Of a stretch of 32,000 bases of DNA, positions 1-26,043 are shown one piece after another (within the stretch, counting starts at the first letter, position 1; the number at the start of each line of letters is the position of its first letter). Both the position numbers and the translations under genes were made by a program. Source of the stretch: Thermoproteus sp. CP80 (GTDB lineage Archaea > Thermoproteota > Thermoprotei > Thermoproteales > Thermoproteaceae); contig NZ_LCWM02000015.1 in assembly GCF_002077075.2 (NCBI RefSeq), forward strand, positions 6,288 to 38,287. The letters are read 5' to 3'. Below the pieces are notes generated by a model. It did not search any database and was not told where the DNA came from. It saw only the letters and a list, made by a program, of their open reading frames with translations.

Positions 1-201
1 ACGGCTGCCGCAGGTATCCCGCGATATGCCCTGGCGCCCCGGGGGCCACGGAGCGCGGCGGGCTCCGCTTCGCCGAGCGCAGGCCCGCCGACATCTGTCT
101 TATCGGGCTGGACCGTATGAACGCGGAATCGGAGCAACGTGCCCGCGCGGCGTGTTTGGCTGCGGGGGCTGGCTCGTGATCTTCGTCGTTCGCCCGGCCG
201 C

Positions 202-1080
202 TCATGGCTGGGCGGCGCAGGCGTTGAGCCTCTTGACGAGGTCTGGGCCGTAGTACAACACGCCCGTCAAGACCTCGACGGCGTTTGCCAGCTTCATCGC
301 GGCCTTTGCCTGTCTGCAGCTCATGACGCCGCCTACGGCTATTATAGGCAAGTCCCCGCCGAGGTGCGCCCTGGCCTTTTCGAGCATCCTCATCATGGCT
401 GGGTAGAGCCAGAGGCCGCTTAGGCCGCCTCTGCCGACGCCTATACGGGGATCGGCGACCGGCAACGTATTGGTGATCACGAGGCCGTGTCCCCCTCTTC
501 TGGCCAGCTCGAGGTAGGCCCTGAGCTCCGACGTAGGGCCCGTCTTTATGAACAGCGGCTTTTTGGACTCGAGGAGAGGCGCGGCCTTATCCCACATGCC
601 TTTATACGTGGGGCTGGAGAGGTTGACCTCGATGGCCCTCACGTTGCTGCCGTACCTCTCAATATAGCGTATCTGCTCGAGAATCTCCCCTGCCGTGAAG
701 CCCGCGACGCTGACAAAGAGGGGGTACTCCACCTTCGATATTCTGGAGAGCACCACGGGCAGGCCCGGGCTGGGCAGGCCCATGGCGTTGACCAGAGAGC
801 GGGGCCTCAGCCTCGCCGTCAGCGGGGGCCTGTTGCCCCTCCTGGGCCGCGCGGTGGTGGAGCCCACCACGATGAAGCCCGGGCAGAAGGCCGACAGCGC
901 CCTGGTGTAGAGGCCGTCCTTGTCGAGCCCCGCGGCTATCCCCACGGGGCCGTTCGTCTCGACCGGGCCCACGCGCCACCTGACGCCCGGCCTGCAGGGA
1001 GGTAGAGGCAACGAGAAGAGCGCTCTGCCCAGCCTCCTGGTCACCTCGGACGGTATCAACTCCGTCAGGCGGGCTAGCAC
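202..1080 (-). CDS. pyrD: dihydroorotate dehydrogenase (class 1 PyrD)
   Basis: ORF 202..1221 has DHODH-type motifs (GIAAGLDKDG, VGSTT, NLSSP, ITNT, GGLSG, AVGGV). The first ~47 codons of the ORF overlap pyrE in another frame. I therefore place the start at the GTG at 1080 (VLARLTE...), which overlaps the pyrE stop by 7 nt. Confidence 0.85.
   Translation of the reverse strand: MLARLTELIPSEVTRRLGRALFSLPLPPCRPGVRWRVGPVETNGPVGIAAGLDKDGLYTRALSAFCPGFIVVGSTTARPRRGNRPPLTARLRPRSLVNAMGLPSPGLPVVLSRISKVEYPLFVSVAGFTAGEILEQIRYIERYGSNVRAIEVNLSSPTYKGMWDKAAPLLESKKPLFIKTGPTSELRAYLELARRGGHGLVITNTLPVADPRIGVGRGGLSGLWLYPAMMRMLEKARAHLGGDLPIIAVGGVMSCRQAKAAMKLANAVEVLTGVLYYGPDLVKRLNACAAQP
341..419 (-). repeat. pyrD-internal segment that is duplicated (inverted) at 4205-4283
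   Basis: It matches the reverse complement of 4205-4283 at 78 of 79 positions (by-eye alignment, single mismatch at 414). It encodes ...LYPAMMRMLEKARAHLGGDLPI... of PyrD. Confidence 0.9.
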
Positions 1081-4204: not shown

Positions 4205-4283
4205 GCGGCGTCTGGCTCTACCCAGCCATGATGAGGATGCTCGAAAAGGCCAGGGCGCACCTCGGCGGGGACTTGCCTATAAT
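4205..4283 (+). pseudogene. orphan 79-bp fragment of pyrD (inverted duplicate of 341-419)
   Basis: Same match as above. The fragment starts 18 nt after the trmB-like stop. It explains the spurious ORFs 4228..4416(+) and 4153..4431(-), which carry PyrD-like or anti-PyrD peptides. Confidence 0.9.
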
Positions 4284-4306
4284 GTTCGAACACGCAATCC
4301 TTAGAC

Positions 4307-4400
4307 GGTGCGTCGATTCCACTTGCGCCCGCCGCCGTCCGGACGCCCGGCGCGTCGGTTCCAAATGTCCGATCGGCCGATTCGAAATGCCAATTTTTCG
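4307..4400 (+). repeat. GC-rich module copies upstream of tnpB (about 1.5 units plus a GGCCGAT tail)
   Basis: GGTGCGTCGATTCCACT (4307-4326) and GCCGCCGTCCGGACGCCCGGCGCGTCGGTTCCAAATG (4331-4367) are followed by TCCGATCGGCCGATTCGAAATGCCAATTTTT. Homologous to 5676-5726 (+), 5959-5991 (-), 6001-6033 (-) and 24615-24671 (+). Confidence 0.75.
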
Positions 4401-4406
4401 GCGTTT

Positions 4407-4460
4407 CCCTCCCTAATTTGAACCGGCTCACAAAGGTTTTTAGTTCAACATAAGGGAGGC
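4407..4460 (+). other. imperfect hairpin just upstream of tnpB (possible left-end structure)
   Basis: CCCTCCCTaatTTGAAC-(20 nt)-GTTCAAcataAGGGAGG. The arms are complementary: TTGAAC/GTTCAA, and CCCTCC(C)T/AGGGAGG with one unpaired C. The function is inferred only. Confidence 0.35.
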
Positions 4461-4473
4461 CGAGGGATGGGAT

Positions 4474-5649
4474 ATGGGAAAGTACAGAGCGTTGGTGTTG
4501 AAATATAATCTGCTACGGCTCCCGCCGGAGGTCGCCGAAAAGATCCCGGCGCTCCTCCGGGTACAAGAGGAGTTCAGAAAATGGGCGGCGGAATGGGCCA
4601 AAAGCGGGGGCTCTTTGCCCCCGCCGGAACGTCCGCTGAAATATTTCGCCGAAGAGTTTCTCCATGCGGGTAATGCGCTAGGGCTCAAAGGCTTAAAGAA
4701 AAACGGCATAGAGGTAAGGGGCGCAAGGCCCCCGCTGATCTTCGACGCCCAGTTGCGGTTAAGCAAAGAAAGAGATAAAAGTAGGGGCATCCTTGTCGAT
4801 ATACCGAGGAGGGGGGTGAGGATCAGGAAGTGGAATAACGGTAACACGATCACGCTTCCGCTTACAGATAAGGCTGTAGAGTTGATATTGGAGAGAACAA
4901 GGGAGGGTGGAAAGCTCGTGATGGCTGCCGTCTGGATCGGGAGAAGCAGGAGAAGTCGCGCCGTGAAGTTGTACGTAGCCCTCACGTTCAGGCGCGAGAT
5001 CGCACCGATGGAGGCCGAGAGGCTTCTCGTCGTCGACGTGAACGCCCTCCACAACGGCCTCGCGTGGGCCGTGGTGGAGGGGGAGAGGATAGTGGAAAAG
5101 GGAGTGTTGAAGCCCAACATATCCAAAATCCTACATCTACAGAAGGTGATCGCCAGGCTCGATAGTGTATGCGCCGAGAAGGACGAGAGGTGCGGCGAGG
5201 CCATGGCCGTGAAGAGCCGCATCTGGCGGCTCTTGCGCGAGTGGGAGGACGAGGCGGCGAAGAAAATCGTCGGCCTCGCCAGGCAGTACAAAGCCGCGGT
5301 TGTCGTCGATATGCCAAACGACGAGTCCATGAGAGAACTGAAAGAGGGCGGCTACGCCTCCGAGAAGAAAGTCTTTCTAAACTTCGGCCGTATAAGGAGG
5401 AGGCTCAGAGGCCTCGCGGAGTGGTACGGCGTGCCGTACCGCGAGGAGAGGCTGTATTCGACTGTTTGCCCCCGCTGTGGGAGAAAGATGGAGGAGTTGC
5501 CGAATAGGCGCGTGAAGTGTCAATGCGGCTTCGAGGCCCATAGGGATGAGGTGCCCATATACTGGGCTCAAAGGCGGTTTCCCGACCTGATAACCCCCTC
5601 TTTTTCTTCCTCCTCCGCCGTCCTACGCATTACGGCGCCGGCCGCCTAG
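4474..5649 (+). CDS. tnpB: TnpB (IS200/IS605-family OrfB, RNA-guided nuclease-like); no tnpA nearby
   Basis: 391 aa with a RuvC-I-like LLVVDVNALHNG. The C-terminal zinc ribbon CPRCGRKM...VKCQCGFEAHRD is followed by a RuvC-III-like HRD. The RuvC-II position reads VVVDM rather than the usual hhhEDL. The low-complexity tail (SFSSSSAVLRITAPAA) may be translation of an RNA-coding region. Confidence 0.85.
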   Translation: MGKYRALVLKYNLLRLPPEVAEKIPALLRVQEEFRKWAAEWAKSGGSLPPPERPLKYFAEEFLHAGNALGLKGLKKNGIEVRGARPPLIFDAQLRLSKERDKSRGILVDIPRRGVRIRKWNNGNTITLPLTDKAVELILERTREGGKLVMAAVWIGRSRRSRAVKLYVALTFRREIAPMEAERLLVVDVNALHNGLAWAVVEGERIVEKGVLKPNISKILHLQKVIARLDSVCAEKDERCGEAMAVKSRIWRLLREWEDEAAKKIVGLARQYKAAVVVDMPNDESMRELKEGGYASEKKVFLNFGRIRRRLRGLAEWYGVPYREERLYSTVCPRCGRKMEELPNRRVKCQCGFEAHRDEVPIYWAQRRFPDLITPSFSSSSAVLRITAPAA

Positions 5650-5675
5650 AGCCGCATGGGGGGCGTCCGGCGGAT

Positions 5676-5726
5676 CCGCCGTCCGGGCCGGCCCCTCCGC
5701 CGCCTTCACGGCGCGTCGGATCGGCC
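5676..5726 (+). repeat. GC-rich module copy immediately downstream of tnpB
   Basis: CCGCCGTCCGGGCCGG...CACGGCGCGTCGGATCGGCC. It shares GCCGTCC and CGGCGCGTCGG...ATCGGCC with 4331-4378 and lacks the TTCCAAATGTCCG segment. Confidence 0.6.
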
Positions 5727-5769
5727 GCACCTCCGCGGGCCCTGTCCGCCCTCGGCCACGCGTCTGAGC

Positions 5770-5856
5770 CATGCCGACAGGGAATACCTAGAGGGCGAAA
5801 CCAACAGGGGTGTACCCCCTGACAACCCCGCCTTCAGACTACTCCCTGTCGGCATG
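5770..5856 (+). ncRNA. 87-nt nested hairpin downstream of tnpB (candidate omega-RNA / right-end structure)
   Basis: Perfect 14-bp outer stem CATGCCGACAGGGA (5770-5783) / TCCCTGTCGGCATG (5843-5856). Inner 7-bp stem GAGGGCG (5791-5797) / CGCCTTC (5829-5835, one G-U pair). Apical GGGG-TGTA-CCCC (5807-5818). The strand and the RNA nature are inferred. Confidence 0.45.
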
Positions 5857-5949
5857 AGAATCCACCGAGGGGGCAGAATCGGGGTCGATTCGCGCCGACG
5901 AGGTGCCGCCCCGCCGGCCCTAAGCGGAACCGAGAAGGCGGAGGAGGAA

Positions 5950-6285
5950 GGCCGCGAGTGGAACCGACACGCCGAGAGAGGGGTCGGCGGCGAAGGCAAG
6001 TTGAACCGACGCGCCGATCCCCATGGACGGCGCGATAAATCGTTATATAGGGTAGCGCGTCTTCTCTCATGGAGAGGCGCCCCCGCGGGCCCGAGGGGCA
6101 GGGCCCGGGTCTGCCGTTTCGCCGCTTGGGTTGGGGCCGGAGAGCCCCGCCCAAACGCTTATGCGCGTAGAGGAGGAGGGGGCGCGCTCCCTACCCGGCC
6201 GGCGCCCCAGCCCGGGGGGCCTTGCGCCTCCCGGGCTCGAGAGCCCCCCTCGTCCGGCCGGAGTTGAAAGGGGGGCATCTGATGC
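5950..6285 (-). repeat. GC-rich structured element, copy B (homologous to 24421-24680 in reverse orientation)
   Basis: The reverse complement aligns colinearly with 24421-24680 through these blocks: CTCCGGCC, CCCGGGC(T/G)GGGG, GGGCTCTCCGGCCC, GCGGCGA, CTCTCCATG and GCGCCGTCCAT(G/A)G(G/A)GATCGGCG. It is dense in GC hairpins and has no credible ORF. Confidence 0.8.
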
Positions 6286-6320
6286 GAAGAGATTTTGATG
6301 GCGAAGAGATTTATAGATGG
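6284..6320 (+). repeat. tandem direct repeat at the outer edge of copy B
   Basis: GCGAAGAGATTTTGATG (6284-6300) is followed directly by GCGAAGAGATTTATAGATGG (6301-6320). Confidence 0.8.
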
Positions 6321-6422
6321 GTGCCTCGATCCCCTTCGTGATGACTAGAGGGTGAGCCCTCCGATGGGTGAGGCTGGTCTGGAGCGCTGATAAAGACGGC
6401 GTGGGCTCCGTCCTGGGGCTGG

Positions 6423-7088: not shown

Positions 7089-9474
7089 ATATATCTTTAG
7101 TTGTTGCTTCGGGTCTCCCCGAGCCGCGCAGCAACTCTATTACCTTCACGTCGACGCCGTTAGCCGCTATCTCCTTGGGCAGATCCTCGGTCTGTGTGGC
7201 CACCACCACTTGGTATTCAGCCGCGAGCGAAGCTATGAGGCCCGCCAGAGACGCCCTGACGCTGGGATCCACGTAGGGCAGAGGGTCGTCCAGCAGAAGG
7301 AAGCCCAGCCTAGGGCCTAACAGCCTGCGCATCGATATCACGAGCGAGAGCGCCACCGCCAACCGTTGCCCATCGCTAAGCTTGGAGATGCCCACGACGT
7401 TTCCATCCGCCAATCTCGCCTCCACCTCGTACGCCTTTTCCCTCAGCGTCAACCCCAACGACGCGATGTCCCTATATGGGTATATCTTTGAGAAATTCCT
7501 CCAGAGCTCATCCTCTATCTCCCCAATTATTCTAGATCTAACATTATATTTTAATATATCTATCTTATTTGATATTTCAGAAAATCTATTGTATGCATAC
7601 ATATACTTCTCCAGCCTCGACCTCAACATATCCAGCTCCTCGTCGACGTTGGCCAAGACCTCCGACAACTTCCTCAACTCGTCGTTAACATCCGCCTTTC
7701 TCCTCCTAATTCTGTCCAGCTCCTCGGAGATCGCCCGGAACTCCTCCTCGGCCTCCAGAGCCGCGCCGCTCAGGCCCAGATTCTTGAGCTCACGCTCCAA
7801 GCCCTCAAGCTCCTCGCGGAGTTGACGCGCCCTGAGCGCCCTGTTGTACCTCCTCAACATCTCCTCTACGGCCTCAGGCGTTACGCTACTCAAGAAGCCG
7901 GCCAACAGCTCGAGACGCCGCGAGATCTGGGAGTAGGACTTAGCCGCTTGGTCCAGCCTCGCCCTGGTCTTCTCCTCCTCGCCGGCCAGCCTCTCCAGCT
8001 CCTCCCTTGCCTTGAGGTACTCAGACACCGTCCCCAGGAGGGACGACAACTCCCTATAGGCGTCCTCCAGGGCCTCCAGCTCCTCCCTCGCCTTCTCCAG
8101 CTGGGCCAGCTCCTGCGAGTACTCCCTCTCTATATCCTTCAGTCTGCTCGACGCGGCGTCTCTGTCCAGCCTGCCGCCGCATACGGGGCACCTCTCGGCG
8201 CCGGTCTCCAGCGCGTATAAGATTATATACCTCAACGACGACGCGTAATGAGTCCTCTTCTCCAGCTCCTTGACCTTTTCCCTCGCCTCGTCCAGCCTCC
8301 TTCTGACCTCCTCGGGAGATCCGTAACGCGCGGAAACCTCCTTGAACCTCCTGTAGGCTCCCTCGAGCTGGTCGACCCTAGCCCTAAGCCTGGAAATCTC
8401 GGTTCTCAGCTCGTCCAGTCTAGCCGCCAGCGACCTCCTCTGGGCGTCGGCCGCCGAGAGGGCCTCCTCCAGGGAGCCTTTTATCTTGGCCAACTCCATA
8501 TAGGCCTCCTGCAGAAGTTCGGCGAGCTTCGCGGCGTCGGGCTCCCTCGATATTTTCTCGAGCATCTGCGGGTCGAGCATGTGCTCGAACTCGGCCATAA
8601 CTCCCACGAACCTATCTCTGAGCTCCTCTATGCGCCCCAGCTCCGAGATATACGCCTCGCGGCCCGACTCCTCCAGCAACTCCAGCTCGGACTTGGCCCT
8701 GTAGTAGGCGTTTATCTTGTCTTGAAGGGCCGATATTTTGTCCATATACCTCCTCCTCTCCTCTAGGAGCTCTCTGTATCTAGCAGATAGATCCGCCTCC
8801 CGGCGCGTGAGGTCCTCGAGCTCTCTCTCCAGCGATGCCTTTACGCCCTTCAGCTTGGACAGACTTCCGTATTTCTCTATCGTGTCTCTATATTTCTCAT
8901 AATACGATATTTTAATTCTAATTTTTTCTATTTCCTTCATTATATTTTTTAATGTAATATTTATTATTTTCTGAATATTATCTAATATATCTATTTGAAG
9001 TATTTTATCTATTAACGAAGTCCTCTTGAGCCTATCGCCGTGTATGAAGTCCTCCAACGCGTAGTGGGATATATAGATCACTCTGTCGTAGTCGTCGCCC
9101 GTTATGCCCGTCATCTCGGCGAGCGCCCCCTCGGCGGCTTCGTCCAGATATCTGCGGTCGTCGAGCTTGAGCTCCAGGCGGCTCCGGCCCCCCCTCCCCA
9201 CCGACCGCCTCACCAGGGCCTTCCTGGTCCCGTCGGCTAGCTCCAGCTCCACCAGGGCGCTGTCGGAGCTCAAGTTGACCAGATCCGCGAGCCTCGCTAT
9301 CCTCTGCCTGACCTCCATCTCCCGCCCGAACAAGGCGAACTCGATTGCCTGGAGCAACGAGGATTTGCCGGCGCCTACCCTGCCGACGATGGCCGTCACC
9401 GGCGATAGCTGGAACTCGTATTCTCCCGAGTAGACCTTGAAGTCCCTCAGCCTAATCCTCGAGATCCTCCACAT
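7072..9474 (-). CDS. SMC/Rad50-like coiled-coil ATPase (arcadin-4-like)
   Basis: 800 aa with Walker A GRVGAGKSS, long coiled coils and a central CxxC hook (ERCPVCGG). The signature is LSDGQRLAVAL and Walker B is FLLLDDP. It lies downstream of crenactin, as in the arcade cluster. Confidence 0.8.
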   Translation of the reverse strand: MWRISRIRLRDFKVYSGEYEFQLSPVTAIVGRVGAGKSSLLQAIEFALFGREMEVRQRIARLADLVNLSSDSALVELELADGTRKALVRRSVGRGGRSRLELKLDDRRYLDEAAEGALAEMTGITGDDYDRVIYISHYALEDFIHGDRLKRTSLIDKILQIDILDNIQKIINITLKNIMKEIEKIRIKISYYEKYRDTIEKYGSLSKLKGVKASLERELEDLTRREADLSARYRELLEERRRYMDKISALQDKINAYYRAKSELELLEESGREAYISELGRIEELRDRFVGVMAEFEHMLDPQMLEKISREPDAAKLAELLQEAYMELAKIKGSLEEALSAADAQRRSLAARLDELRTEISRLRARVDQLEGAYRRFKEVSARYGSPEEVRRRLDEAREKVKELEKRTHYASSLRYIILYALETGAERCPVCGGRLDRDAASSRLKDIEREYSQELAQLEKAREELEALEDAYRELSSLLGTVSEYLKAREELERLAGEEEKTRARLDQAAKSYSQISRRLELLAGFLSSVTPEAVEEMLRRYNRALRARQLREELEGLERELKNLGLSGAALEAEEEFRAISEELDRIRRRKADVNDELRKLSEVLANVDEELDMLRSRLEKYMYAYNRFSEISNKIDILKYNVRSRIIGEIEDELWRNFSKIYPYRDIASLGLTLREKAYEVEARLADGNVVGISKLSDGQRLAVALSLVISMRRLLGPRLGFLLLDDPLPYVDPSVRASLAGLIASLAAEYQVVVATQTEDLPKEIAANGVDVKVIELLRGSGRPEATTKDIFARKD

Positions 9475-12336: not shown

Positions 12337-13092
12337 GTGGATTTGCGCGACGTGGAGGACTTAATATATAAGGCCGCCTACGGCCGACGGCGCGAGATCT
12401 TGCTCACGCTATATAGCGAGGGCACGACCAGTTTAAATAGGCTCAGGAATAAGCTGGGCATCTCGTCGTCGGCGCTTCTATTCGATATCTCCGCGCTGGA
12501 GGCGCTGGGGCTCATCAAGAGAGATGGGGGCTTCGTCGAGCTGACCGACAAAGGGGCCAAGGTGGCCTCTATCCTATCGTCCATAGCCCCTCTGAAGAAC
12601 TTGTCCATGTTGGAGGCGCTGGGGCTACGCCCCTTCGTCGTCCCCATGCTCGCGTCGCCGTACCTCAACGCCGTAGCCGCGTTGCTCCTGGCTATTTGGA
12701 TCGCGTCGATATACATTTCCAGGTCCGCATTAATAGGAGTTATATACAGTTATATTTTTACTAACATTTATTATATTTTATTTGTATCAATTTTATCACT
12801 GACTACTATATTAATATCTATTTATTTTGCTACACGTAGAAAAGTCCATATAACTAATATAATAATCGGGTTATTTCCATTATTAATATATCCATCAATT
12901 TCTATTATAATAAATAATTATAATATTATTTATACATTGAAATTTATATTGTTATTACTATCATGCGGCACTCTATCCACTGCGACATCCTATGACGTGG
13001 GCTCCAAATACGAGACGGCGCTGTTGGCCTATCTCTCTGGCATGTTCATATTTCCTATACTTATCTATTTAATGCTACATGTTTATATATAG
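12337..13092 (+). CDS. membrane protein with N-terminal winged-helix (ArsR-like) domain
   Basis: The N-terminal ~85 aa are HTH-like (RRREILLTLYSEGTTSLNRLRNKLGISSSALLFDISALEALGLI). They are followed by about 5-6 hydrophobic segments. The start may be the in-frame GTG at 12352, given the TATA-like TCTTTAATTAAAC at 12320-12332. Confidence 0.6.
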   Translation: MDLRDVEDLIYKAAYGRRREILLTLYSEGTTSLNRLRNKLGISSSALLFDISALEALGLIKRDGGFVELTDKGAKVASILSSIAPLKNLSMLEALGLRPFVVPMLASPYLNAVAALLLAIWIASIYISRSALIGVIYSYIFTNIYYILFVSILSLTTILISIYFATRRKVHITNIIIGLFPLLIYPSISIIINNYNIIYTLKFILLLLSCGTLSTATSYDVGSKYETALLAYLSGMFIFPILIYLMLHVYI

Positions 13093-13603
13093 ACCTCAGG
13101 AGGATAGTTATGCCACATTAAGTTTACTATCTAGAATAAATAATAGATTCAATATATGTATTGATGTGGGCGCCGGCTCGTGCATACTTACGCGTGAATT
13201 GAGTAGATTCTGTAGACACGTCGTAGCTGTGGACATAAACCCCTACGCCTGCGCCGAATGCAGAAAGTACGACGTGCTGTGCGCCCACGGGCTCTCGGCC
13301 ATATCTAGAGCCGACTTGGTAGTCAGCAATCCGCCCTATCTGCCGCCCGAGGAGCCGCCCAGCGATATGGAGGCCCTAGCTATCTACGACTACGGGCTCA
13401 TCGACCACATATTGAGGTGGGCCTTCGCCTATAGGCCGCGCCTATTGGTGCTGACGTATAGTACTCTCGGGAGGGCCGACCTAATCGAGGAGGCAGCCTA
13501 CGCCCTAGGCAGAATAGTGGATAGGGAGGTAGTCCACCGCTTCTTTGAGGATATAGTCTCTATTGCTGTTGAGCCTCTGGGCCCAGTCTCTGGAAGTTCT
13601 TGA
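13079..13603 (+). CDS. HemK/Mtq2-like SAM-dependent methyltransferase (NPPY class)
   Basis: 174 aa with YRPQEDSY near the N-terminus, SAM motif I DVGAGSC and the catalytic motif VSNPPYLP. Confidence 0.75.
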   Translation: MFIYRPQEDSYATLSLLSRINNRFNICIDVGAGSCILTRELSRFCRHVVAVDINPYACAECRKYDVLCAHGLSAISRADLVVSNPPYLPPEEPPSDMEALAIYDYGLIDHILRWAFAYRPRLLVLTYSTLGRADLIEEAAYALGRIVDREVVHRFFEDIVSIAVEPLGPVSGSS

Positions 13604-14567
13604 GCCTTATATGCAACAACGACTCCAGTATATCGCTTATGTATTCATTTATCCTCACGGCGCTATCTCTGGCCAGCGAGGTGGCCGGATCGGACAGGAT
13701 CACCTCCTTCCTCATCTTGAGGGCCCAGTCCGTTAGGTCCCTATATAGGGCGGTGAGCTTCATGTCGTCGACATTTCCGCCGAAGAAGTCCATCAAGGCG
13801 CCCATGTGCTCCGCAGCTCTCTCCAATATCGGCCTGACAACTCTCAAGTCCAGTTTTTCCTCTTGGTTTATATATGCTATTTTGCATATATGGTCGGCGA
13901 TTCTCTCTATGGACTTGGCAATTATCGTATATTCGACCAAGTCCCGGGGATCCTCGACTTTCAGCTCCAGCATTATGTAGCGCGACATGGCGGCCCTCTT
14001 CAGCTGACGTTCGACCAGCCAGTAGAGCCTGTCCACCTCGTCGTCGCGCTCCGTGACGTCCCTCAGCAGCTCCATGTTGTCGGCCTCCAGGCCCCTTATC
14101 AAGTCGAGCAACATGTTGTCCGTCAGCTTCAACATCTTCAGAGCTACGTCGCCTATGGCCAGCTCGGTCGCCGCCACCATGGCTTGGACGACCAGCTTGT
14201 CGCTGGACTCCTCCGTTATCTCCATATCTATAACCCTCCTCCTCACGAAGTCCTTGAGGTGCTTCCTATACTGTGTAGCCCCGGGGGCGAACCTCATCGT
14301 TATGACCTCGGCCCCTGCTATATAGATCGACATGAATATCTTCTCGAGCTCCTCCAAGCTGGCCCTCTCGCCGATCTGGAGCTCGACGGACAGATATGTG
14401 CGTTTGCCCAATTTACGCGGTATAAGGACCAGCGTGTTGTCCGGCTGAGGCACTATGAGCACCTCGTCTCCTGGCGACAAGTTGGTTCGTCGCGCCCATT
14501 CCTTCGGCAGGCTGACTATGAGGGTGGCTCCGCCCGTCAACTGTACCCTACGCACTTCGCCTTCCAT
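13560..14567 (-). CDS. AbrB/SpoVT-domain plus PhoU-domain protein (phosphate-uptake-regulator-like)
   Basis: 335 aa. The N-terminal swapped-hairpin motif is VQLTGGATLIVSLPKEWARRTNLSPGDEVLIVP. Two helical PhoU-like repeats follow (ERDDEVDRLYW..., IAKSIERIADHICKIA). Confidence 0.7.
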   Translation of the reverse strand: MEGEVRRVQLTGGATLIVSLPKEWARRTNLSPGDEVLIVPQPDNTLVLIPRKLGKRTYLSVELQIGERASLEELEKIFMSIYIAGAEVITMRFAPGATQYRKHLKDFVRRRVIDMEITEESSDKLVVQAMVAATELAIGDVALKMLKLTDNMLLDLIRGLEADNMELLRDVTERDDEVDRLYWLVERQLKRAAMSRYIMLELKVEDPRDLVEYTIIAKSIERIADHICKIAYINQEEKLDLRVVRPILERAAEHMGALMDFFGGNVDDMKLTALYRDLTDWALKMRKEVILSDPATSLARDSAVRINEYISDILESLLHIRLKNFQRLGPEAQQQ

Positions 14568-14678
14568 GTGCTATCTTGAACAGCTATATATAACTATTTA
14601 TTGCATATACTTACTCCCTGTATATATATACAATATAAATAATATGATTAATAATAATTTTTAATATAAATTATATAT

Positions 14679-15824
14679 TTAATCTATAAATTTATTGTTT
14701 TTGATTTTATCTTTTATATAGTCGTGAAGATATTTTAATCCATGTGCCGACAAGGCCTCTATCTCCACCTTCTTCTTGCTCTTCAGGAAGTACTCTAGCT
14801 CTTTCCTCCACACGTCGTTCTGGAACCAGGGATATTTCAGGAGCTCCTGCGCCCTCTTCACGTCTCTGTCGGTAGCTTTTATCACGAATTGATCGGGTAT
14901 CTTGTACCTCTCTATATCTAGGGGCGCCACCCCGAGGAATTTAGCGTTGGGAGTCGCCAGCCTTTCGCTCTCGTAGCTGAGCTTTATAGAGCCGCTCTTA
15001 TATACCGAATAGATGTAGATCCCGTAGGGGTCGCCGTCCGTCAACACGTAGACCGGCAACTTGTACTCCTCGTTGAGCCTTTTGACGAATCTCCTAGTTG
15101 CTCTATCGGGCATGCCCTTGGCCGTTATCAAAACGGCGTTCTCCTGCGACCAGAACTTCTCCCTAACTAGGCGCTGGAAGATGGCGTCCTTCTCTATGAC
15201 CAAGACGTAGGAGGCCTCCACCTTGATTATCTCCAGCGCGTCGACGTTGACGGGAAGGCTCAGGGCTGTCTCGCCGAATTTAGACGCGTCGAGCTCGTAG
15301 CCCTGAGAACGGACGACTATGGGCCCCACCACCTTTCCCTTCACGTCGGCGCTGACGCCCATCTCTTCCCTCAATATATTCGTCGCTACCTCTATGTCCT
15401 CTATAACTCCATTGGACTCCGCTTGTTCATCCCAGGTATTCTCCCTATGGACTCTGCCCAGAGGGTCCTTGAAGACTATAGTGTGCTTTCCGTTGTAGTA
15501 GAGGTCGCGTATCGTGGGGAACACGTCGGCCCTCATGGCCTCCACTATGAGGCTGAGCATCAACACGGTCTGCATGAACCTCCTGGACTCCTTGACGTCG
15601 AGGAACCTCCTGCGTATCTTCTCGGGACCCAGCTTCAACATCCTCGCCCTCTCGTCCCACACAGTGTTGCCTAGAGTGCGGGCCGGTATCTCCATCACGG
15701 GCTCCCTCAAGCTCAACGCGGATTTCGCCAGCTCGGCCCCCCATTCCTCCAACTGCTTCAAAAACCTAGCCCGCTCACCCATGCCCCGCCTCGTACTAGA
15801 TGCTATATATTCTTGAGGGCCCAC
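14679..15824 (-). CDS. top6A: DNA topoisomerase VI subunit A (Spo11 homologue)
   Basis: 381 aa with the Spo11/TopVIA 5Y-CAP region (IRDLYYNGK) and a Toprim region (VLVIEKDAIF, LTDGDPYGIYI). Confidence 0.9.
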   Translation of the reverse strand: MGPQEYIASSTRRGMGERARFLKQLEEWGAELAKSALSLREPVMEIPARTLGNTVWDERARMLKLGPEKIRRRFLDVKESRRFMQTVLMLSLIVEAMRADVFPTIRDLYYNGKHTIVFKDPLGRVHRENTWDEQAESNGVIEDIEVATNILREEMGVSADVKGKVVGPIVVRSQGYELDASKFGETALSLPVNVDALEIIKVEASYVLVIEKDAIFQRLVREKFWSQENAVLITAKGMPDRATRRFVKRLNEEYKLPVYVLTDGDPYGIYIYSVYKSGSIKLSYESERLATPNAKFLGVAPLDIERYKIPDQFVIKATDRDVKRAQELLKYPWFQNDVWRKELEYFLKSKKKVEIEALSAHGLKYLHDYIKDKIKNNKFID

Positions 15825-17737: not shown

Positions 17738-18601
17738 CTACCTCTGGGCGCCCGCCCCACATTGGGCTATTTTCAGTATCTTGGCTGCGGCATCGGGTGC
17801 ATCGAAGCCGAAGACGTAGCCGTTGGCCTCTATGCCGACGCCGCCTCTGTCCAGCACCACGTCGTAGCTACGGACGCGCATGGCGGCCGTTATGTTTTCG
17901 ATGGTTTCCTCCTCTGTGTTGCTGGGACCTACAATTACATATTCGTAATTATACTTTTTAATACAATTTATTATATTTTCATCATATCTTATATTTATAA
18001 CTGCTTTTATATTTCTATGGATATTATTTATATTTAATATAAGCTTGCCCAGAAATTTGGCACCCCACAGCTGGGGCTCAGACGTGGTGACCAGCGATTC
18101 TCCCACCACCGAGATGCGGCCGGGATACCCGATCGGCCCCTCGCCGCCGAGCTCCACTATATTCATCAACACCTTTGGAACTAGATTTATTACATATTTA
18201 TTGCTTTTAAGCATATTAAAACTTGTTATAATTCTATTTTTAACCTCATTTACAATAGATATGTTTTTACATATATCGCAATTCCTTAGGTAGGGCGCCG
18301 CGTGTCTATGCACATCGCAAAACCTCAGAGAAGATAGGAGAGATAACACAAAGTTGTTCAGATATTCGATGGCCTCAGGATAGTTCTGTTGATCCACCGC
18401 CATGACGACGACGTCCAAAAGCCTGTTGACCTCCTCCTTGGATAGCCCCACATCGGCCAGCCTCCGCTCGTAGTGCTCCCTGTCCAGCTTCAAATAGGCG
18501 CTTACGGCCGGCTGCGATATGCCGAGTATCTGGCCCACCTTGCTCTGCGAAAGGCCGCGGCGCGACAGCTCGTGGGCGATCAGCCCCTTAAGCGGCTGCA
18601 T
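17738..18601 (-). CDS. XRE-type HTH regulator fused to a ThiN-like domain (ThiR-like)
   Basis: The ORF extends to 18802, but its N-terminal 67 aa are implausible. I start at Met 18601 (MQPLKGLIAHELSRRGLSQSKVGQILGISQPAVSAYLK). The C-terminal ~200 aa resemble the ThiN/ThiD-associated domain seen in archaeal ThiR. The domain call is from memory, not a search. Confidence 0.55.
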   Translation of the reverse strand: MQPLKGLIAHELSRRGLSQSKVGQILGISQPAVSAYLKLDREHYERRLADVGLSKEEVNRLLDVVVMAVDQQNYPEAIEYLNNFVLSLLSSLRFCDVHRHAAPYLRNCDICKNISIVNEVKNRIITSFNMLKSNKYVINLVPKVLMNIVELGGEGPIGYPGRISVVGESLVTTSEPQLWGAKFLGKLILNINNIHRNIKAVINIRYDENIINCIKKYNYEYVIVGPSNTEEETIENITAAMRVRSYDVVLDRGGVGIEANGYVFGFDAPDAAAKILKIAQCGAGAQR

Positions 18602-18735
18602 GACCTTTTCCGACAAGAGCTCCAGGGGGAACACAGTCCATAGAAATATCAATAAAATATTTACCCAATAGGCCTTCGGCGACGGGGCAGCCGCCGCGGC
18701 GCGAAACCTTATTATTTGACCCAGACGGCTGGCGC

Positions 18736-19671
18736 GTGATAGACCATATAGAGCTGCAGTTAGGCGAGCGTAAAATATCCGGCGAGCTGACGCCGTTGAC
18801 ATTTATAGTAGGTTCAGGTAAAAGCGTCTTTATAAATTCTATATATTTAGTTTTATCAAATATAGGATTGAAAATACCAAAAATATATTATAATAAATTT
18901 AATATATCTATAAAAATAAATAATAAAATTTTTTCTTTACAAAAAAACGGGAAGATATATAGACAGATATTCGACGAAGGGGGCAGAAAGGTCGCGATAG
19001 AGTATGGCGCCTTGGACGGCTCCCGCATCAGCAGGATCGTGGAGCCGTTCGAGCTCGCGATCAAGAACGCAGATATCTTGATGCCCCAGATAGATGTAGC
19101 CGAACACGTCTCCATATTGGCCGACGAGGAGATAGAGGAGGTGAATAGGCTCATAGGCGAGTTCAGAAAGGCCTTCTCGCTGAAGGTGACCTCCCTGGGC
19201 CCGTATATAGACCCCAGGACCTTCCACGACCCGACCAAGGCCGCGGGCTCCCTCAAACCTGACGGCAGTAATCTGGTCGGCGTGTTGGCCAGGTTAGCTC
19301 TCGAAAACCCAGACGCCTACGATAGGCTGAGGACGTCCTTCAGGAAAAAGGGAGTCAAGCTCGCCGTAGGGCTTGCGAAAAGGGGCGTCCTGGCCGGCGT
19401 GGCCCACATCGGAGGGGCCAAGATGCCTATCTCCAGGTTGCCCTGCAGCTTAAAGACGGCGTTGGTGTTCGCCGCGGCCGTCGCGACCAAGCCAGATCTG
19501 CTACTCATCGAAAATTTTGATTGCTGCTTCAACGAGGGCCTGGTCGATATATTGACAAGCTATTTTAACGAGCAAATATCGAGGGGCCAAATAGTCGTGG
19601 AAATACATAGGCCCGACGTAGCCGATCTATTCAAGATACAGTACAAATCGATAGTTTCGGTGGCGCTCTGA
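18736..19671 (+). CDS. divergent ABC/AAA_21-like ATPase with degenerate motifs
   Basis: 311 aa with a shortened P-loop FIVGSGKSVF, a signature-like LKPDGSNLVGVLARLAL and a Walker-B-like DLLLIENFD (no DE pair). GTG start, with TTATTATTTG about 20-29 nt upstream. Confidence 0.6.
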   Translation: MIDHIELQLGERKISGELTPLTFIVGSGKSVFINSIYLVLSNIGLKIPKIYYNKFNISIKINNKIFSLQKNGKIYRQIFDEGGRKVAIEYGALDGSRISRIVEPFELAIKNADILMPQIDVAEHVSILADEEIEEVNRLIGEFRKAFSLKVTSLGPYIDPRTFHDPTKAAGSLKPDGSNLVGVLARLALENPDAYDRLRTSFRKKGVKLAVGLAKRGVLAGVAHIGGAKMPISRLPCSLKTALVFAAAVATKPDLLLIENFDCCFNEGLVDILTSYFNEQISRGQIVVEIHRPDVADLFKIQYKSIVSVAL

Positions 19672-19680
19672 TTACGTGTA

Positions 19681-19887
19681 CTATACGTATACCTTCAGCT
19701 CCTGCAAGATCTTTATAACCTTCTGGAGCTCCTTGATCTCCTTCTGGGCTATCTTGAGGGCCTCCTCGACCACATCGCGCGAGGGCCCTCCCACGTTGAA
19801 CTCATACGCGACGTAGTTCAGGACGGCCCTAGCCCCCAAGCCCTCCACGTCCTTCAGGCTATTCCTGACGATTTCGGCGGGATCCAC
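19681..19887 (-). CDS. small helical hypothetical protein
   Basis: 68 aa with a GTG start that overlaps the end of the upstream DUF54-like gene by 29 nt. No motif recognised. Confidence 0.45.
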   Translation of the reverse strand: MDPAEIVRNSLKDVEGLGARAVLNYVAYEFNVGGPSRDVVEEALKIAQKEIKELQKVIKILQELKVYV

Positions 19888-20296
19888 GTAGCTTCCTCAG
19901 CTCCTCTATTAAGCTATTCGCCGACGCCTGCGGTATTCTGATCTCCACATGTATCACGTCGTCGCCGCTGTCGAGCCGCAGAATGCCGCGCAGAGCCTTC
20001 TGTTTATTCAATCTAATAAATAACTTGTTTTTATATATAGTTAATTCATTTAATAAAATCTCAAAATCTAAATCATCTATTAATTTAATTATATTGGCAA
20101 AAATCTCCGAGGCGCGGCAGCCCTCGGCCTCTGCGTACAGCGCAGTTATGGCGTTGCCGTAATACCCCGCTATCCGGTCCATACGCACCTCGCCGGGCAC
20201 GACGTTCCTCAAGGCCTTGGCCACCTTGCCGCAGTCCTCGGTGGAGTGGCAGTAGGCAGTCGCCCTTATCAGCCTGACGGGACAAGGCCTCTGCAC
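19859..20296 (-). CDS. DUF54/COG1325-like RNA-binding protein (predicted exosome-associated)
   Basis: 145 aa. The pattern (IRATAYCHSTED...VAKALRNV...GYYGNAI...LFIRLNKQKA..G...L..GDDVIHVEI) matches my memory of the COG1325 family. It is divergent from psmA, as in the exosome superoperon. Confidence 0.6.
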   Translation of the reverse strand: MQRPCPVRLIRATAYCHSTEDCGKVAKALRNVVPGEVRMDRIAGYYGNAITALYAEAEGCRASEIFANIIKLIDDLDFEILLNELTIYKNKLFIRLNKQKALRGILRLDSGDDVIHVEIRIPQASANSLIEELRKLRGSRRNRQE

Positions 20297-23598: not shown

Positions 23599-24419
23599 TG
23601 GCGTCCATATCCCCCTACGGAAAGCGCTTCATCTCGTACATAAGGCAGAGCCAGATAAGGAGGCTCGTGGGGTCCGGCGTCAGGATAGACGGGAGGACGC
23701 CCCACCAGCTGAGGGACGTGTCCATCAGGACCAACGTGGTCAATACCGCGGATGGGTCGGCCGAGGCGCTGTTGGGGAAGACCAGAGTGGTGGCGGGAGT
23801 CAAGGTGGGCCTGGGCCAGCCGTTCCCGGACACGCCCGACGAGGGCGTGTTGATAGTGAACGCCGAGATTCTGCCGCATGCCTCCCCCTACAGCGAGATA
23901 GGGCCTCCGGACGAGACGGCCATAGAGCTCGCCCGCGTGGTGGACCGCGGCATACGCCACAGCGGCTTCGTGGACTTCAAGAAGCTGGCGATAGACCAGA
24001 ACAAGGTCTACGTGCTCTGGGTAGATCTCTACGTCCTGAACGACGACGGCAATCTGGTCGACGCGGCGAATCTCGCCGCCCTGGCGGCTCTACGGTCCAC
24101 CATGTTGCCGTCGGCCGTCAAGGACGAGGCGGGGGTTAAGCTGGATCGGAACAACAAGACGGCGCTTCCGTCCGACCTCTCCAAGGCGCCGATAGCGGTT
24201 TCGATAGGTAAGATAGATTCCCGCATTATAGTGGATCCCAACCTCGAGGAGGAGCTCTCGCTGGATGGACGGATAACCATAACCATAGCTCAGGACTCCA
24301 TCGTATCCATGCAGAAGACAGCCGGCTATTTCACCGAGCAGGAGCTCTGGCAGGCCGTGGACCTCGCCTACTCGATCAGGGACAAGCTCAGGGATGTTCT
24401 GCTGAAGAGCCTGGTCTGA
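23598..24419 (+). CDS. rrp42: exosome RNase PH-like subunit Rrp42
   Basis: 273 aa (RIDGRTPHQLRDV, ADGSAEALLGKTRVVAGV, VLNDDGNLVDAANLAALAAL). It overlaps the rrp41 stop by 1 nt. Confidence 0.9.
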   Translation: MASISPYGKRFISYIRQSQIRRLVGSGVRIDGRTPHQLRDVSIRTNVVNTADGSAEALLGKTRVVAGVKVGLGQPFPDTPDEGVLIVNAEILPHASPYSEIGPPDETAIELARVVDRGIRHSGFVDFKKLAIDQNKVYVLWVDLYVLNDDGNLVDAANLAALAALRSTMLPSAVKDEAGVKLDRNNKTALPSDLSKAPIAVSIGKIDSRIIVDPNLEEELSLDGRITITIAQDSIVSMQKTAGYFTEQELWQAVDLAYSIRDKLRDVLLKSLV

Positions 24420-24420
24420 G

Positions 24421-24680
24421 GCATCCCCTCTTCATCTCCGGCCAGGCGATGGGACTCGGGAACCCTCCCGGGCGGGGGCCCCAGCCGGTCGGGGCTCCCT
24501 CTTCGTCGTGAGGCATTTGGACGGGCTCTCCGGCCCGTGCGGCGAGCGGCCGGCCCTCGGCCGGCGGAGTCTCTCCATGGTGATACGTTACGTCTCTCCG
24601 TACGATGATCTGTTGCGCCGTCCATAGAGATCGGCGTGTGATTCCAAATGGCCGATAGGCCAATTTAAAATATCGATTTT
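24421..24680 (+). repeat. GC-rich structured element, copy A (homologous to the reverse complement of 5950-6285)
   Basis: It begins 2 nt after the rrp42 stop. It shares the colinear blocks listed for copy B, and its 3' part (24615-24671) carries the module GCGCCGTCCATAGAGATCGGCGTGTGATTCCAAATGGCCGATAGGCCAATTT. The ORFs listed here (24368..24625, 24388..24663) are Arg/Pro/Gly-rich artefacts. Confidence 0.8.
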
Positions 24681-24785
24681 ATTATAAGGCCAGTGGGCAC
24701 ATACCCAATTATGTGCAACAACGCTTGGAGGCGTGGTGCCAGCCTCATAGCAACAAAGACTTATAGATAGGTTGCTTCGGCGGCC

Positions 24786-25604
24786 GTGAGAGGTCTGTGG
24801 GTGGTGTTAGTTGCGGCGGCTTTGGCCACCGTGGCGGCCTTGACGGCCGTGGTAGCTGCGCAGAGGGCCTTAGTATACATTGTGCCGCTGTATTCCTACC
24901 CGTGTTGCGGCTACGAGCAGGAATGGGGGAAGTTGCTCAACCTCCACACAGACAAGGAGGTGTGGGTGGTGGTCAACGTGGACGACGGGCCCGGCTCTTC
25001 GGTGGACTCCACATACGTCTCTGTCATCAGCGGGCTTAAGCAGAGGGGCTTCAAGGTGCTGGGTTACATATACAGCTCCTACGGAAGGAGAAGCCTGGAG
25101 ACGGTATACTCAGAGATGGACAGGTGGATAAGGTTCTACAACGTAGACGGCTTCTTCATAGACGAGGTGTCCACGAGCCTGGAGACCTATAGCTACTACT
25201 CTTCGATATACAGCAGAGCCAAGAGCCTTGGCAAATACGTCGTGCTGAACCCCGGCACCAACATAGACCCGAGGTTCTTCAACATTGCGGATAAGATAGT
25301 GGTGTTCGAGTCGCCTCTGGAGGAGTACGTAAACTTCAGCTACCTGGACTACTCCTCTGCGGCGCCCGACAGGGTGTGTACAATTGTTCTAAACACGCCG
25401 CCGGACAAGGTGGACTACGTCGTACAGAAGGCCGTCGCAAACGGCAGCAGGTGCGTCTACGTACACGACAGAGCCGACAAGTGGCAAACTGGCGACTCGG
25501 CCTACTTCTACCTGAGCCCCTATTTGAGTTGGCTCTCACTCCCGTTTTTGTTAATACAGATATGCGTCGACGAGCAGGTCGGCCGGGGCCGTCGCGGGGC
25601 GTAG
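24786..25604 (+). CDS. secreted spherulin-4 / GH135 (Sph3)-like protein
   Basis: 272 aa with an N-terminal signal/TM (LWVVLVAAALATVAALTAVVAA). The following pattern (YIVPLYSYP...W..L......VWVVVNVDDGPG, GYIYSSYGRR, VDGFFIDEV, VVLNPG) matches my memory of the spherulation-specific family 4. GTG start, with CTTATAGATAGG about 24-35 nt upstream. Confidence 0.65.
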   Translation: MRGLWVVLVAAALATVAALTAVVAAQRALVYIVPLYSYPCCGYEQEWGKLLNLHTDKEVWVVVNVDDGPGSSVDSTYVSVISGLKQRGFKVLGYIYSSYGRRSLETVYSEMDRWIRFYNVDGFFIDEVSTSLETYSYYSSIYSRAKSLGKYVVLNPGTNIDPRFFNIADKIVVFESPLEEYVNFSYLDYSSAAPDRVCTIVLNTPPDKVDYVVQKAVANGSRCVYVHDRADKWQTGDSAYFYLSPYLSWLSLPFLLIQICVDEQVGRGRRGA

Positions 25605-25728
25605 GACGCGGGCCTGGCGGCGTGCCCTAGGCGCATGGCCACGCCGAACACGGCGCCGAGGGTTGTCCCAGTCTGAAGGGCCGCTACCGCGCTGGCGAAA
25701 TTTTATATAGCCCAGATCATTGTGGCGC

Positions 25729-26043
25729 ATGCCGTTTAGCCACACCAAGGTGGTGGGGCCTGCCGGGAGGTACGGCGCCCGGTACGGCATGGGCATCAGG
25801 AGGAAGATAACCGCCGTTGAGGTCAAGCAGAGGGGCCTCCACCGCTGTCCCAACTGCAGGTCGCTGGTGAGGCTGAGGCGGCTCGCCTTCGGCATCTGGC
25901 AATGCCCCAAATGCGGCTTCACCTTCGCGGGCGGCGCCTGGATCCCGCAGACCATACTCGGCAGAACTCTGACGCCCGAGGAGCTTAAACAAGTGGAGAT
26001 ACAGAAAGCCAGATGGAGGGGGGCCTCGCAGGAGCCCAGCTAG
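25729..26043 (+). CDS. rpl37ae: ribosomal protein L37Ae (eL43)
   Basis: GPAGRYGARYG plus the zinc ribbon CPNC...CPKCG. I start at the ATG at 25729, about 20-28 nt downstream of TTTTATATAG (25701-25710). Confidence 0.9.
   Translation: MPFSHTKVVGPAGRYGARYGMGIRRKITAVEVKQRGLHRCPNCRSLVRLRRLAFGIWQCPKCGFTFAGGAWIPQTILGRTLTPEELKQVEIQKARWRGASQEPS

Follow-up and report, generated by a model that had tools for sequence, protein, structure and literature searches.

A conserved GC-rich structured module forms the end of a TnpB-encoding mobile-element family in hot-spring Thermoproteus and Pyrobaculum

What is the GC-rich, structured sequence that occurs as two diverged copies within 32,000 nucleotides (nt) of Thermoproteus sp. 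CP80 DNA (contig NZ_LCWM02000015.1; the whole stretch is referred to as the window), which derives from a Yellowstone hot-spring Thermoproteus population? One copy (copy A) lies near a gene for a TnpB-like protein and the other (copy B) follows rrp42; the initial annotation offered as candidates a miniature inverted-repeat transposable element (MITE)-like derivative of the TnpB element, an orphan guide-RNA-like module or a new family of structured non-coding RNA. Comparison with related loci identified the sequence, hereafter the module, as a conserved end piece of a mobile-element family that carries a TnpB-like gene in hot-spring Thermoproteus and Pyrobaculum. With regard to its function, we consider the chances about even that the module is a cassette for a predicted outward-reading RNA, similar to the guide RNAs of TnpB (ωRNAs, or right-end element RNAs, reRNAs), which would guide the element's own TnpB.

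The two copies were confirmed to be diverged and oppositely oriented, the reverse complement of 5950-6285 being colinear with 24421-24680, and all of the conserved blocks originally listed were present in the same order (MAFFT, window:5950-6300(-) versus 24400-24700(+), 75% column identity). The local alignment score of 39 compared with 12.0 ± 1.6 (maximum 20) in 300 dinucleotide shuffles (z = 16.6) and with 18 in a same-strand control alignment. An nhmmer profile constructed from 47 family members of other contigs, leaving out the window and all copy-B-type sequences, matched copy A (6284-5948(-), E = 2.5e-102) and copy B (24423-24650(+), E = 2.4e-30), and a third, partial match in the window (4277-4374(+), E = 3.8e-11) covered hairpin units only. 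The two hairpins proposed for each copy both exist, and their stem sequences differ between the copies as had been described, though hairpin 1 of copy A (GGGGC-CGGAGA-GCCCC) is situated at 6133-6148 rather than 6136-6151 and extends to 6128-6152; hairpin 2 of copy A occupies 6086-6107 and has the loop GAGGGGCA.

The proposed mapping against empty orthologous sites proved feasible in two sister strains. Strain contigs L009 and L010 (loci are designated by L-numbers) carry the empty allele ...GGCGTCTG|ATGCGAAGAGATTTATAG, with 151 nt between the TrmB gene and a gene for a 214-amino-acid protein; as these strains miss 4215-6281 as one block, copy A is the outer end of the tnpB insertion. The suspected TnpB-element origin was thus borne out, whilst the view of copy A as a separate element beside tnpB was not, since it constitutes the outermost ~250 nt of the same 2.07-kb insertion. 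The insertion and its junctions comprise the following features:

4215 to 6281, no strand: whole insertion relative to the empty allele, ~2067 nt, with TCTG at both junctions (4211-4214 and 6278-6281)
4205 to 4283, plus strand: inverted copy, 79 nt, of an internal segment (341-419) of the DHODH gene (inverted repeat I1, 99% complementary)
4284 to 4380, plus strand: 'short end', in which 22 nt precede 1.5 hairpin units (CGGYGCGTCGRTTCCA; GCCGCCG-N10-CGGCGCG), followed by the beginning of the tnpB-upstream region (AAATGTCCGATCGGCCGA)
4474 to 5649, plus strand: TnpB-like open reading frame (ORF) of 391 amino acids, matching Pfam Cas12f1-like_TNB above its cut-off (E = 8.6e-9)
5770 to 5856, no strand: 87-nt palindrome (inverted repeat I15), belonging to a separate dispersed palindromic repeat family
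5959 to 6033, minus strand: two tandem hairpin units, opposite in orientation to the left-end units, with the GC-rich stretch next outward
6043 to 6049, plus strand: TATA-like box TTATATA, 26 nt upstream of the conserved CATGGAGAG, which would drive outward transcription
6069 to 6278, plus strand (the predicted RNA sense): copy A of the module, delimited from alignment A5 and pair counts, with the terminus ...GAGTTGAAAGGGGGGCAT
6282 to 6312, plus strand: imperfect 17/18-nt tandem duplication of the flank (GATGCGAAGAGATTTT / GATGGCGAAGAGATTTA), found in every filled and in no empty allele

The TnpB-like ORF is bracketed by inverted repeats (4306-4363 and 5959-6016) made of ~40-nt units, each a hairpin GCSCCG-N10/11-CGGCGYG followed by TCGGTTCMA; the short end was recognized from inverted repeats I2 and I11, which pair with 5959-6016, and from the third nhmmer match. 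At the left junction, the DHODH-derived stretch has the microhomology GGCSTCTG in common with the target site, and this junction is not a transposon end; the stretch looks like templated filler DNA from double-strand-break repair. At the right junction, the flank duplication changes TTTATAG to a run of T4-T6 located 16-19 nt past the end of the module. Other strains possess the identical outer junction and module with different interiors: in L012 and L014 tnpB is inverted and 80% identical, and L013 and L044 differ again. A further strain contig, L008, seemingly lacked the module, but its sequence here runs into a scaffold gap (a run of N) and then an apparent cloning-vector polylinker. The insertion site of copy A is positioned just upstream of the promoter of a candidate C/D-box small RNA (6334-6392(+); weak Rfam matches to sR3, sR23 and sR53, best E = 0.039, below gathering), which has TTTATAG upstream at 6310-6316 and is also present in the empty-site strains.

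A search for further family members, as had been proposed, recovered 53 loci from Joint Genome Institute (JGI) metagenomes by motif scan, in which the module was mapped by nhmmer and tnpB by tblastn. In these loci the module is always the outer edge, with tnpB, when present, always inward of it, and the order inward from the boundary is the module (~210 nt), one to five tandem ~40-nt hairpin units and the tnpB region. The module can be placed at the tnpB-upstream end, at the tnpB-downstream end, or at both ends in inverted orientation, as in L064. The gene points away from the module, its ATG at a distance of 249-363 nt, in L020, L034, L037, L039, L047, L057, L062, L074, L075 and L079, and toward it in the window and in L011, L033, L035, L036, L041, L043, L058, L059, L060 and L077. 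The outer terminus ...GAGTTGAAAGGGGGC-R-Y is followed by unrelated sequence in ~22 genomic contexts, and the module ends at the host DNA boundary or no more than 1-2 nt from it. The more alike two modules are, the more alike are their TnpBs (rho = 0.68), which denotes linkage and co-evolution, though solo copies exist: many module copies are solo or truncated, often retaining tnpB-upstream sequence or the first tnpB codons, whilst L056 comprises 535 nt with two facing modules, without tnpB and with no target-site duplication seen, and L018 and L023 are core-only tnpB copies without a module. Every copy found is a transposon end, contrary to the suggestion of a free-standing structured RNA family. 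The module flank of L073 is a chimera of two insertion sites (GTCACTG|CGCATCAGAC|TGCCCCC), implying ectopic recombination between copies at different loci.

To what extent, then, is the module constrained as a folded molecule? A two-domain model was derived from 43 non-B sequences (alignment A5), and has the following elements in copy A:

6077-6084 with 6178-6185: helix P1' (GYGCYCCC with GGGRGCGC), enclosing hairpins 2 and 1
6086-6107: hairpin 2, with the invariant loop AGGGGCA
6128-6152: hairpin 1
6186-6192 with 6269-6276: helix P5' (GCYCCCU with AGGGGGC), enclosing P6, P7a and P7b
6195-6202 with 6254-6261: helix P6, inside P5'
6209-6237: hairpin P7a, inside P5'
6238-6252: hairpin P7b, inside P5'

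Paired cells amounted to 97.2% against 92.8% in shuffles (reached in 0/500), 12 pairs displayed compensatory changes (1/500 shuffles) and the covariation score was 0.176 against 0.099 (0/500), but as the fold model was derived from the same sequences, many of them close relatives, these counts over-state the number of independent events. Sliding the 3' partners along left at most 58% paired, and an alternative pairing of the same C- and G-runs had slightly lower support. P7a has at least two distinct sequence versions, each of which pairs (AGCCCGGG.../...CCCGGGCU and GCCUCCGC/GCGGAGGC), P7b switches A-U to C-G, and a possible loop-loop contact of 6095-6099 with 6243-6247 is essentially invariant. 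According to this model the module keeps its two-domain fold via compensatory substitutions, and the covariation bears out the earlier impression that the sequence is not junk but constrained as a folded single strand.

The strand on which this constraint acts was examined from wobble pairs. On the outward-reading strand (plus for copy A, minus for copy B), 92 G-U pairs were counted against 28 A-C mismatches at paired positions; for the P1 helix of a first model together with hairpin 1 alone, G-U pairs numbered 52 and A-C mismatches 0, and P5' varies by U-G only. Read on the other strand, the wobble positions would become A-C mismatches. This asymmetry points to a single-stranded function of the outward strand and, as that strand reads outward, the fold would close in the helix AGGGGGC, 2 nt from the host flank. 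A strong TATA-like box accompanies 25 of the 55 unique copies (counted by hand) and a weak one ~10, with none in copy B; together with the wobble counts, the box would suggest outward transcription.

A conserved ATG (ATGGAGAG) 26 nt downstream of the TATA box, after which the first ~12 codons are alike in many copies, might instead indicate that the module encodes a small Arg/Pro-rich protein from a leaderless mRNA. This is scarcely credible: 11/55 unique copies have a non-start codon (AAG, ACG, AGG or CTG) in place of the ATG, three frames are in use after ~12-20 codons with stops anywhere at 31-74 codons, strain variants of copy B differ by 1-, 6- and 10-nt indels, and there is no Pfam match. 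The protein-coding reading was rejected on the lost start codons, the shifting frames and the missing Pfam match, and the original statement that neither copy contains a believable ORF stands (Pfam was empty for 5656-6267(+) and 24388-24663(-), and neither the ATG nor the frame is kept among copies).

The protein that such an RNA would serve was characterized by profile searches. Besides its Pfam match, the TnpB-like ORF matched NCBIfam guided_TnpB below the curated cut-off (E = 2.1e-8) and gave a profile match to a solved TnpB-like nuclease (E = 1.5e-4); a PDB search with the single protein retrieved nothing. At least 290 homologues were found, those with a named source being from Thermoproteus or Pyrobaculum, and an exact-protein look-up of the window TnpB and of a radical-SAM gene product returned no record. 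Residues D188, D279 and D358 are invariant in 24 TnpB homologues and occupy what we take to be the RuvC motifs, assigned partly from the solved-nuclease alignment; because three acidic residues are kept at these positions, it is plausible that the protein needs a guide.

Taken together, these observations would fit the following scheme for the guide RNA. In TATA-bearing copies such as copy A, transcription would start near CAUGGAGAG (6069), and the RNA would fold into the scaffold and continue into the flanking DNA; because the last scaffold helix sits 2 nt from host DNA, the transcript would gain a 3' tail derived from the flank. Such an RNA may act as an ωRNA/reRNA-like guide for the TnpB nuclease, as in TnpB and Fanzor elements, and the guided TnpB could cleave unoccupied copies of the insertion site, whereby the element would be retained or copied back. 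The guide-RNA-like candidate of the initial annotation is near what the data suggest, albeit with its RNA function inferred.

Several observations weigh against the module being the guide, in addition to the derivation of the fold model from closely related sequences. More than half of the copies have a weak TATA box or none. Single-sequence folding energies were no better than those of shuffles (sense z = -0.78, antisense z = -1.07, copy B z = 0.03), and since these z-scores are not significant it is covariation that supports the structure; RNAalifold on the raw 55-sequence alignment likewise gave a weak, fragmentary consensus, with indistinguishable consensus energies for the two strands. 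Rfam 15 covariance models yielded nothing at gathering thresholds across the whole window, and at E ≤ 10 around both copies the structured cores were unmatched, a single 25-nt GHRLOS match in copy A (E = 5.6) being at chance level; a tRNA and transfer-messenger RNA scan of the window found none. No consistent motif of the target-adjacent (TAM) type emerged from three reconstructed target sites. The module was encountered in hot-spring metagenomes only and in no isolate genome scanned: in species-representative and isolate genomes, a TnpB peptide scan retrieved no relative and a DNA motif scan only eight unrelated-looking cyanobacterial and other bacterial matches, and viral contigs gave no match with two different motifs.

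The position of the module relative to tnpB also differs from that of a TnpB ωRNA. In the window, 485 nt separate the tnpB stop codon from the module motif downstream, and ~420 nt separate it from the module 5' end; about half of the tnpB-linked copies have their module upstream and divergent. Directly downstream of tnpB, in the canonical place of an ωRNA, is another conserved non-coding region with structure, and it is this region that could be the real, canonical guide RNA. It holds a unit-like hairpin and a member of the dispersed palindrome family, and in L075 and L047 it reaches the other element boundary. The palindromic repeats themselves (~90 nt; outer stem ACAGGGAG/CTCCCTGT, core ACAGGGGGCTAGCCCCCTGT in copies other than that at 5770-5856) occur with and without tnpB in L038, L044, L047, L062, L066 and L078, downstream of tnpB and also alone at many sites, often with a purine-rich tail next to them. 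Downstream of tnpB in several family members is also a small Cys-rich ORF (MEDDAFGRCCVACMNRC...; L018 3920-4176, L034, L064), which had no match in NCBIfam, the library searched, and whose 3' part changes frame between copies.

How the element moves was inferred from its boundaries. Although the genome-wide 10-mer search for target-site duplications returned mostly chance matches, two complete elements, and only these, were boundary-consistent. L034 has a 10-bp duplication (AAAGCCATGA), and removal of the element and one repeat restores the overlapping stop and start codons of adjacent RNA polymerase subunit genes (rpoE'-like and spt4-like, by eye); L058 has a 9-bp duplication (TCTTGCCCA), and removal restores an ORF starting MKVLAQSDGE. 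Elements of the IS200/IS605 and IS607 families are without inverted ends and without target-site duplication (PMC13565253), while here there are both duplications and inverted unit arrays or modules at the ends. Because two complete elements show 9-10 bp duplications, the composite element is not a canonical IS200/IS605 element, and that model was ruled out. The published literature searched contained no account of the module element, nor of target-site duplications around TnpB elements of archaea.

The ends are of several kinds: a 'long end' is the module, whilst a 'short end' is the last unit and 19-22 nt. The right tail of the L075 type ends ...GAAAAAGGGGGT, which gives a short terminal inverted repeat ACCCCCTTT. 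As short-end elements keep intact 9-10 bp duplications, insertion does not require the module at both ends. No locus yielded a transposase gene; the longer elements L066 and L042, when searched for one, contained only helicase-like, methyltransferase-like and host genes, and a short 'MREVPS...' ORF was discarded as it is not conserved.

These ends bring forward the second-ranked explanation, next after the guide RNA, namely that the module is purely cis-acting transposon-end DNA, providing binding or folding sites, double- or single-stranded, for a transposase supplied in trans, with no RNA produced. The module is always terminal, the ends have the short motif CCCCCTTTC in common, the TATA box is not universal, and the 9-10 bp duplications tell of real integration machinery acting on the ends; moreover, single-stranded DNA also tolerates G-T wobble, such that strand asymmetry alone is no proof of RNA. 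Yet elements with a short end insert with normal duplications, which renders the 210 nt dispensable at one end, and the module is nevertheless conserved with compensatory changes among elements whose linked TnpBs are only 61-78% identical to that of the window. Known transposase end sites are far smaller than a ~210-nt multi-helix fold. With no transposase gene found in any locus besides, we regard this explanation as unlikely.

Next in order come two further alternatives, an outward regulatory RNA and an independent carrier element. Under the former, the module would be a regulatory RNA or promoter-out element comparable with RNA-OUT of IS10, blocking read-through or modulating neighbours rather than guiding a nuclease. 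Its outward orientation and TATA box would suit this, as would the frequent location of insertions a few bases from the stop or start codon of a host gene and, for copy A, just upstream of the candidate small RNA of the C/D-box type and its promoter. The predicted RNA, however, starts 250-360 nt from the tnpB ATG and reads away from it, and for want of any overlap with the tnpB mRNA it cannot serve as an antisense of the RNA-OUT type; the flanks are unrelated, so there is no common target, and a conserved closing helix exactly at the boundary is left unexplained. We judge this role distinctly improbable.

The latter alternative holds that the module and hairpin units form an independent, non-autonomous, MITE-like carrier in or near which IS1341-type tnpB cores have repeatedly nested, the link with tnpB being secondary. 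It would account for the solo modules and the 535-nt double-module element without tnpB, for the core-only tnpB copies without a module (L018, L023), for tnpB in both orientations relative to the module and for different interiors behind the same outer junction among strains, and mobile elements that target other mobile elements have been documented in haloarchaea (PMC3119063). It is at odds with the co-divergence of module and TnpB (rho = 0.68), with the order module-units-tnpB being kept at fixed spacing (249-363 nt) whilst the TnpBs are 63-78% identical to that of the window, with elements of the L075 type, which consist of module, units and tnpB core with host DNA on either side, and with the appearance of most solo copies, which look as if they arose by deletion and still hold tnpB-upstream sequence or the first codons of tnpB. 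A carrier of this kind is distinctly doubtful.

Copy B, the second copy in the window, illustrates such derivatives, and comprises:

24420 to 24579, minus strand (the predicted RNA sense): copy B of the module, shortened to ~160 nt versus 210, with no TATA box
24615 to 24649, plus strand: single hairpin unit, GCGCCG-TCCATAGAGAT-CGGCGT followed by GTGATTCCAAAT (inverted repeat I3)
24650 to 24680, plus strand: remnant, ~30 nt, of tnpB-upstream ('left interior') sequence, with matches at 4364-4400 and in the left interiors of L014 and L023, where the element has been truncated in copy B

The copy starts at 24420-24422, just past the rrp42 stop codon (24417-24419) as had been noted, carries internal deletions and is fixed downstream of rrp42 in all six strain contigs examined, with strain indels of 1, 6 and 10 nt. 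It is a decayed, truncated solo end of the TnpB-element family, and is probably inactive because it has no promoter and carries deletions. The MITE-like origin proposed for it was close to what the data suggest, though an intact MITE it is not: only one end is present, and a second terminus and target-site duplication were not detected within the window. Nor does it lie at an rrp42-L37Ae junction, the next gene being a Spherulin4-family gene (24786-25604), with L37Ae only at ~25720-26043.

This Spherulin4-family gene, which in the exosome gene cluster separates rrp42 from L37Ae, is absent from some strains or truncated in them, which makes the rrp42-L37Ae intergenic region a hotspot of strain variation. 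In L003 and L005 (orthologous to window ~24655-25150), a deletion extends from the inner edge of copy B to the middle of the gene, and looks like an adjacent deletion starting at the transposon remnant. Elsewhere in the window, positions 1 to 204 (plus strand) represent the right-hand interior of another tnpB element from this family; it adjoins the DHODH stop codon, its tnpB lies off-window, and it matches L018 3978-4176, which is downstream of a 75%-identical TnpB. Amid the GC-rich coding DNA, several intergenic stretches are strongly AT-rich and of low complexity (~7500-9000, 12750-14700, 17950-20100 and 30050-30800; repeat families D1-D3).

Prokaryotic TnpB has been described as a passenger of IS200/IS605 and IS607 elements, and its guide RNA as overlapping the 3' end of the gene; the present family instead displays duplications, inverted ends made of several units, and a structured terminal module that is detached and can lie on one side or on both. 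If the module is a guide RNA, it would show a guide cassette turning modular and independent of the nuclease gene, which would bear on the origin of CRISPR-type arrangements and on Fanzor-like capture by other transposons, and would represent a compact hyperthermophilic RNA scaffold. A bolder proposition, which we think unlikely, is that the archaeal TnpB element is a cut-and-paste-type transposon with its guide RNA in a self-contained, promoter-bearing terminal cassette, at either end or at both (as guides for both flanks), such that a detached cassette could be an orphan guide-RNA gene or a miniature element using TnpB in trans; if true, this would be a prokaryotic counterpart of the Fanzor1-type arrangement and would undo the presumed link between prokaryotic TnpB and the chemistry of IS200/IS605 and IS607. 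Should the module not be a guide, it nonetheless represents a structured element, uncatalogued and backed by covariation, that marks a mobile family behind strain-level variation in hot-spring Thermoproteus. It is of interest to the fields of TnpB/OMEGA systems (obligate mobile element-guided activity) and archaeal mobile elements.

Which known system, finally, does the module resemble? RNA-OUT of IS10 is a stable structured RNA of ~70 nt, transcribed from an outward promoter in the transposon end and overlapping the start of the transposase mRNA; the module is alike in its predicted outward-facing promoter (the TATA-like box) inside a transposon end, and unlike in being three times larger and in having no overlap with the tnpB mRNA. 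The IscB ωRNA is ~200 nt with a complex fold, is located upstream of the nuclease gene at the transposon end, and reads in the direction of the gene with a 5' guide. Size, complex fold and an upstream position at the transposon end recur in the 'same' arrangement of the module, but its wobble asymmetry points to the opposite, outward strand, and the protein is TnpB-like rather than IscB.

The MITEs and palindrome-associated transposable elements (PATEs) of Haloquadratum walsbyi (PMC3119063) are short non-coding mobile derivatives that keep only the parental ends. Copy B and L056 conform to this, L056 also in its size and inverted repeats, and so do tnpB-element deletion derivatives and elements nested within others; copy B differs in being one-ended, with no second terminus or target-site duplication detected, and the end retained is a large structured module with covariation, beyond a short terminal repeat or palindrome.

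Amongst guide RNAs, there is a precedent in the reRNAs of Fanzors: where the non-autonomous transposon has both terminal inverted repeats and target-site duplications, the reRNA takes in the repeat as well as the duplication and reaches ~15 nt into the flank (PMC10711439). As in the eukaryotic and viral Fanzor1 and Fanzor2* elements, the TnpB homologue here is the only obvious protein in a duplication-making transposon (PMC10711439), and the guide RNA, as predicted here, would lie at the very element end, take in the terminal repeat and extend into the flank. The differences are the archaeal host, a module that is separated from the ORF, sometimes upstream and divergent and sometimes present at both ends, the subterminal arrays of hairpin units, and two predicted domains rather than three stems.

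With the IS200/IS605 elements of the IS1341 group, the family has in common the TnpB itself, with its TNB domain above the Pfam cut-off. As with the ωRNA/reRNA of IS200/IS605 elements such as ISDra2, the module is a structured, tnpB-linked non-coding sequence in the ~150-250 nt range, its scaffold ends at the transposon boundary and would read into the flank as a 3' guide, and it has a possible loop-loop, pseudoknot-like contact. It departs from these RNAs in that it does not overlap the tnpB 3' end, unit arrays and >300 nt lying between; in that it has its own TATA box and is found at one end or at both, on the strand of tnpB or on the opposite one; in that its host element makes 9-10 bp duplications where IS200/IS605 elements make none (PMC13565253); and in that this predicted RNA shows no sequence or Rfam similarity. 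By analogy, the module would work most like a TnpB or Fanzor reRNA, minus the overlap with the 3' end of tnpB, one positional hallmark of the prokaryotic ωRNAs.

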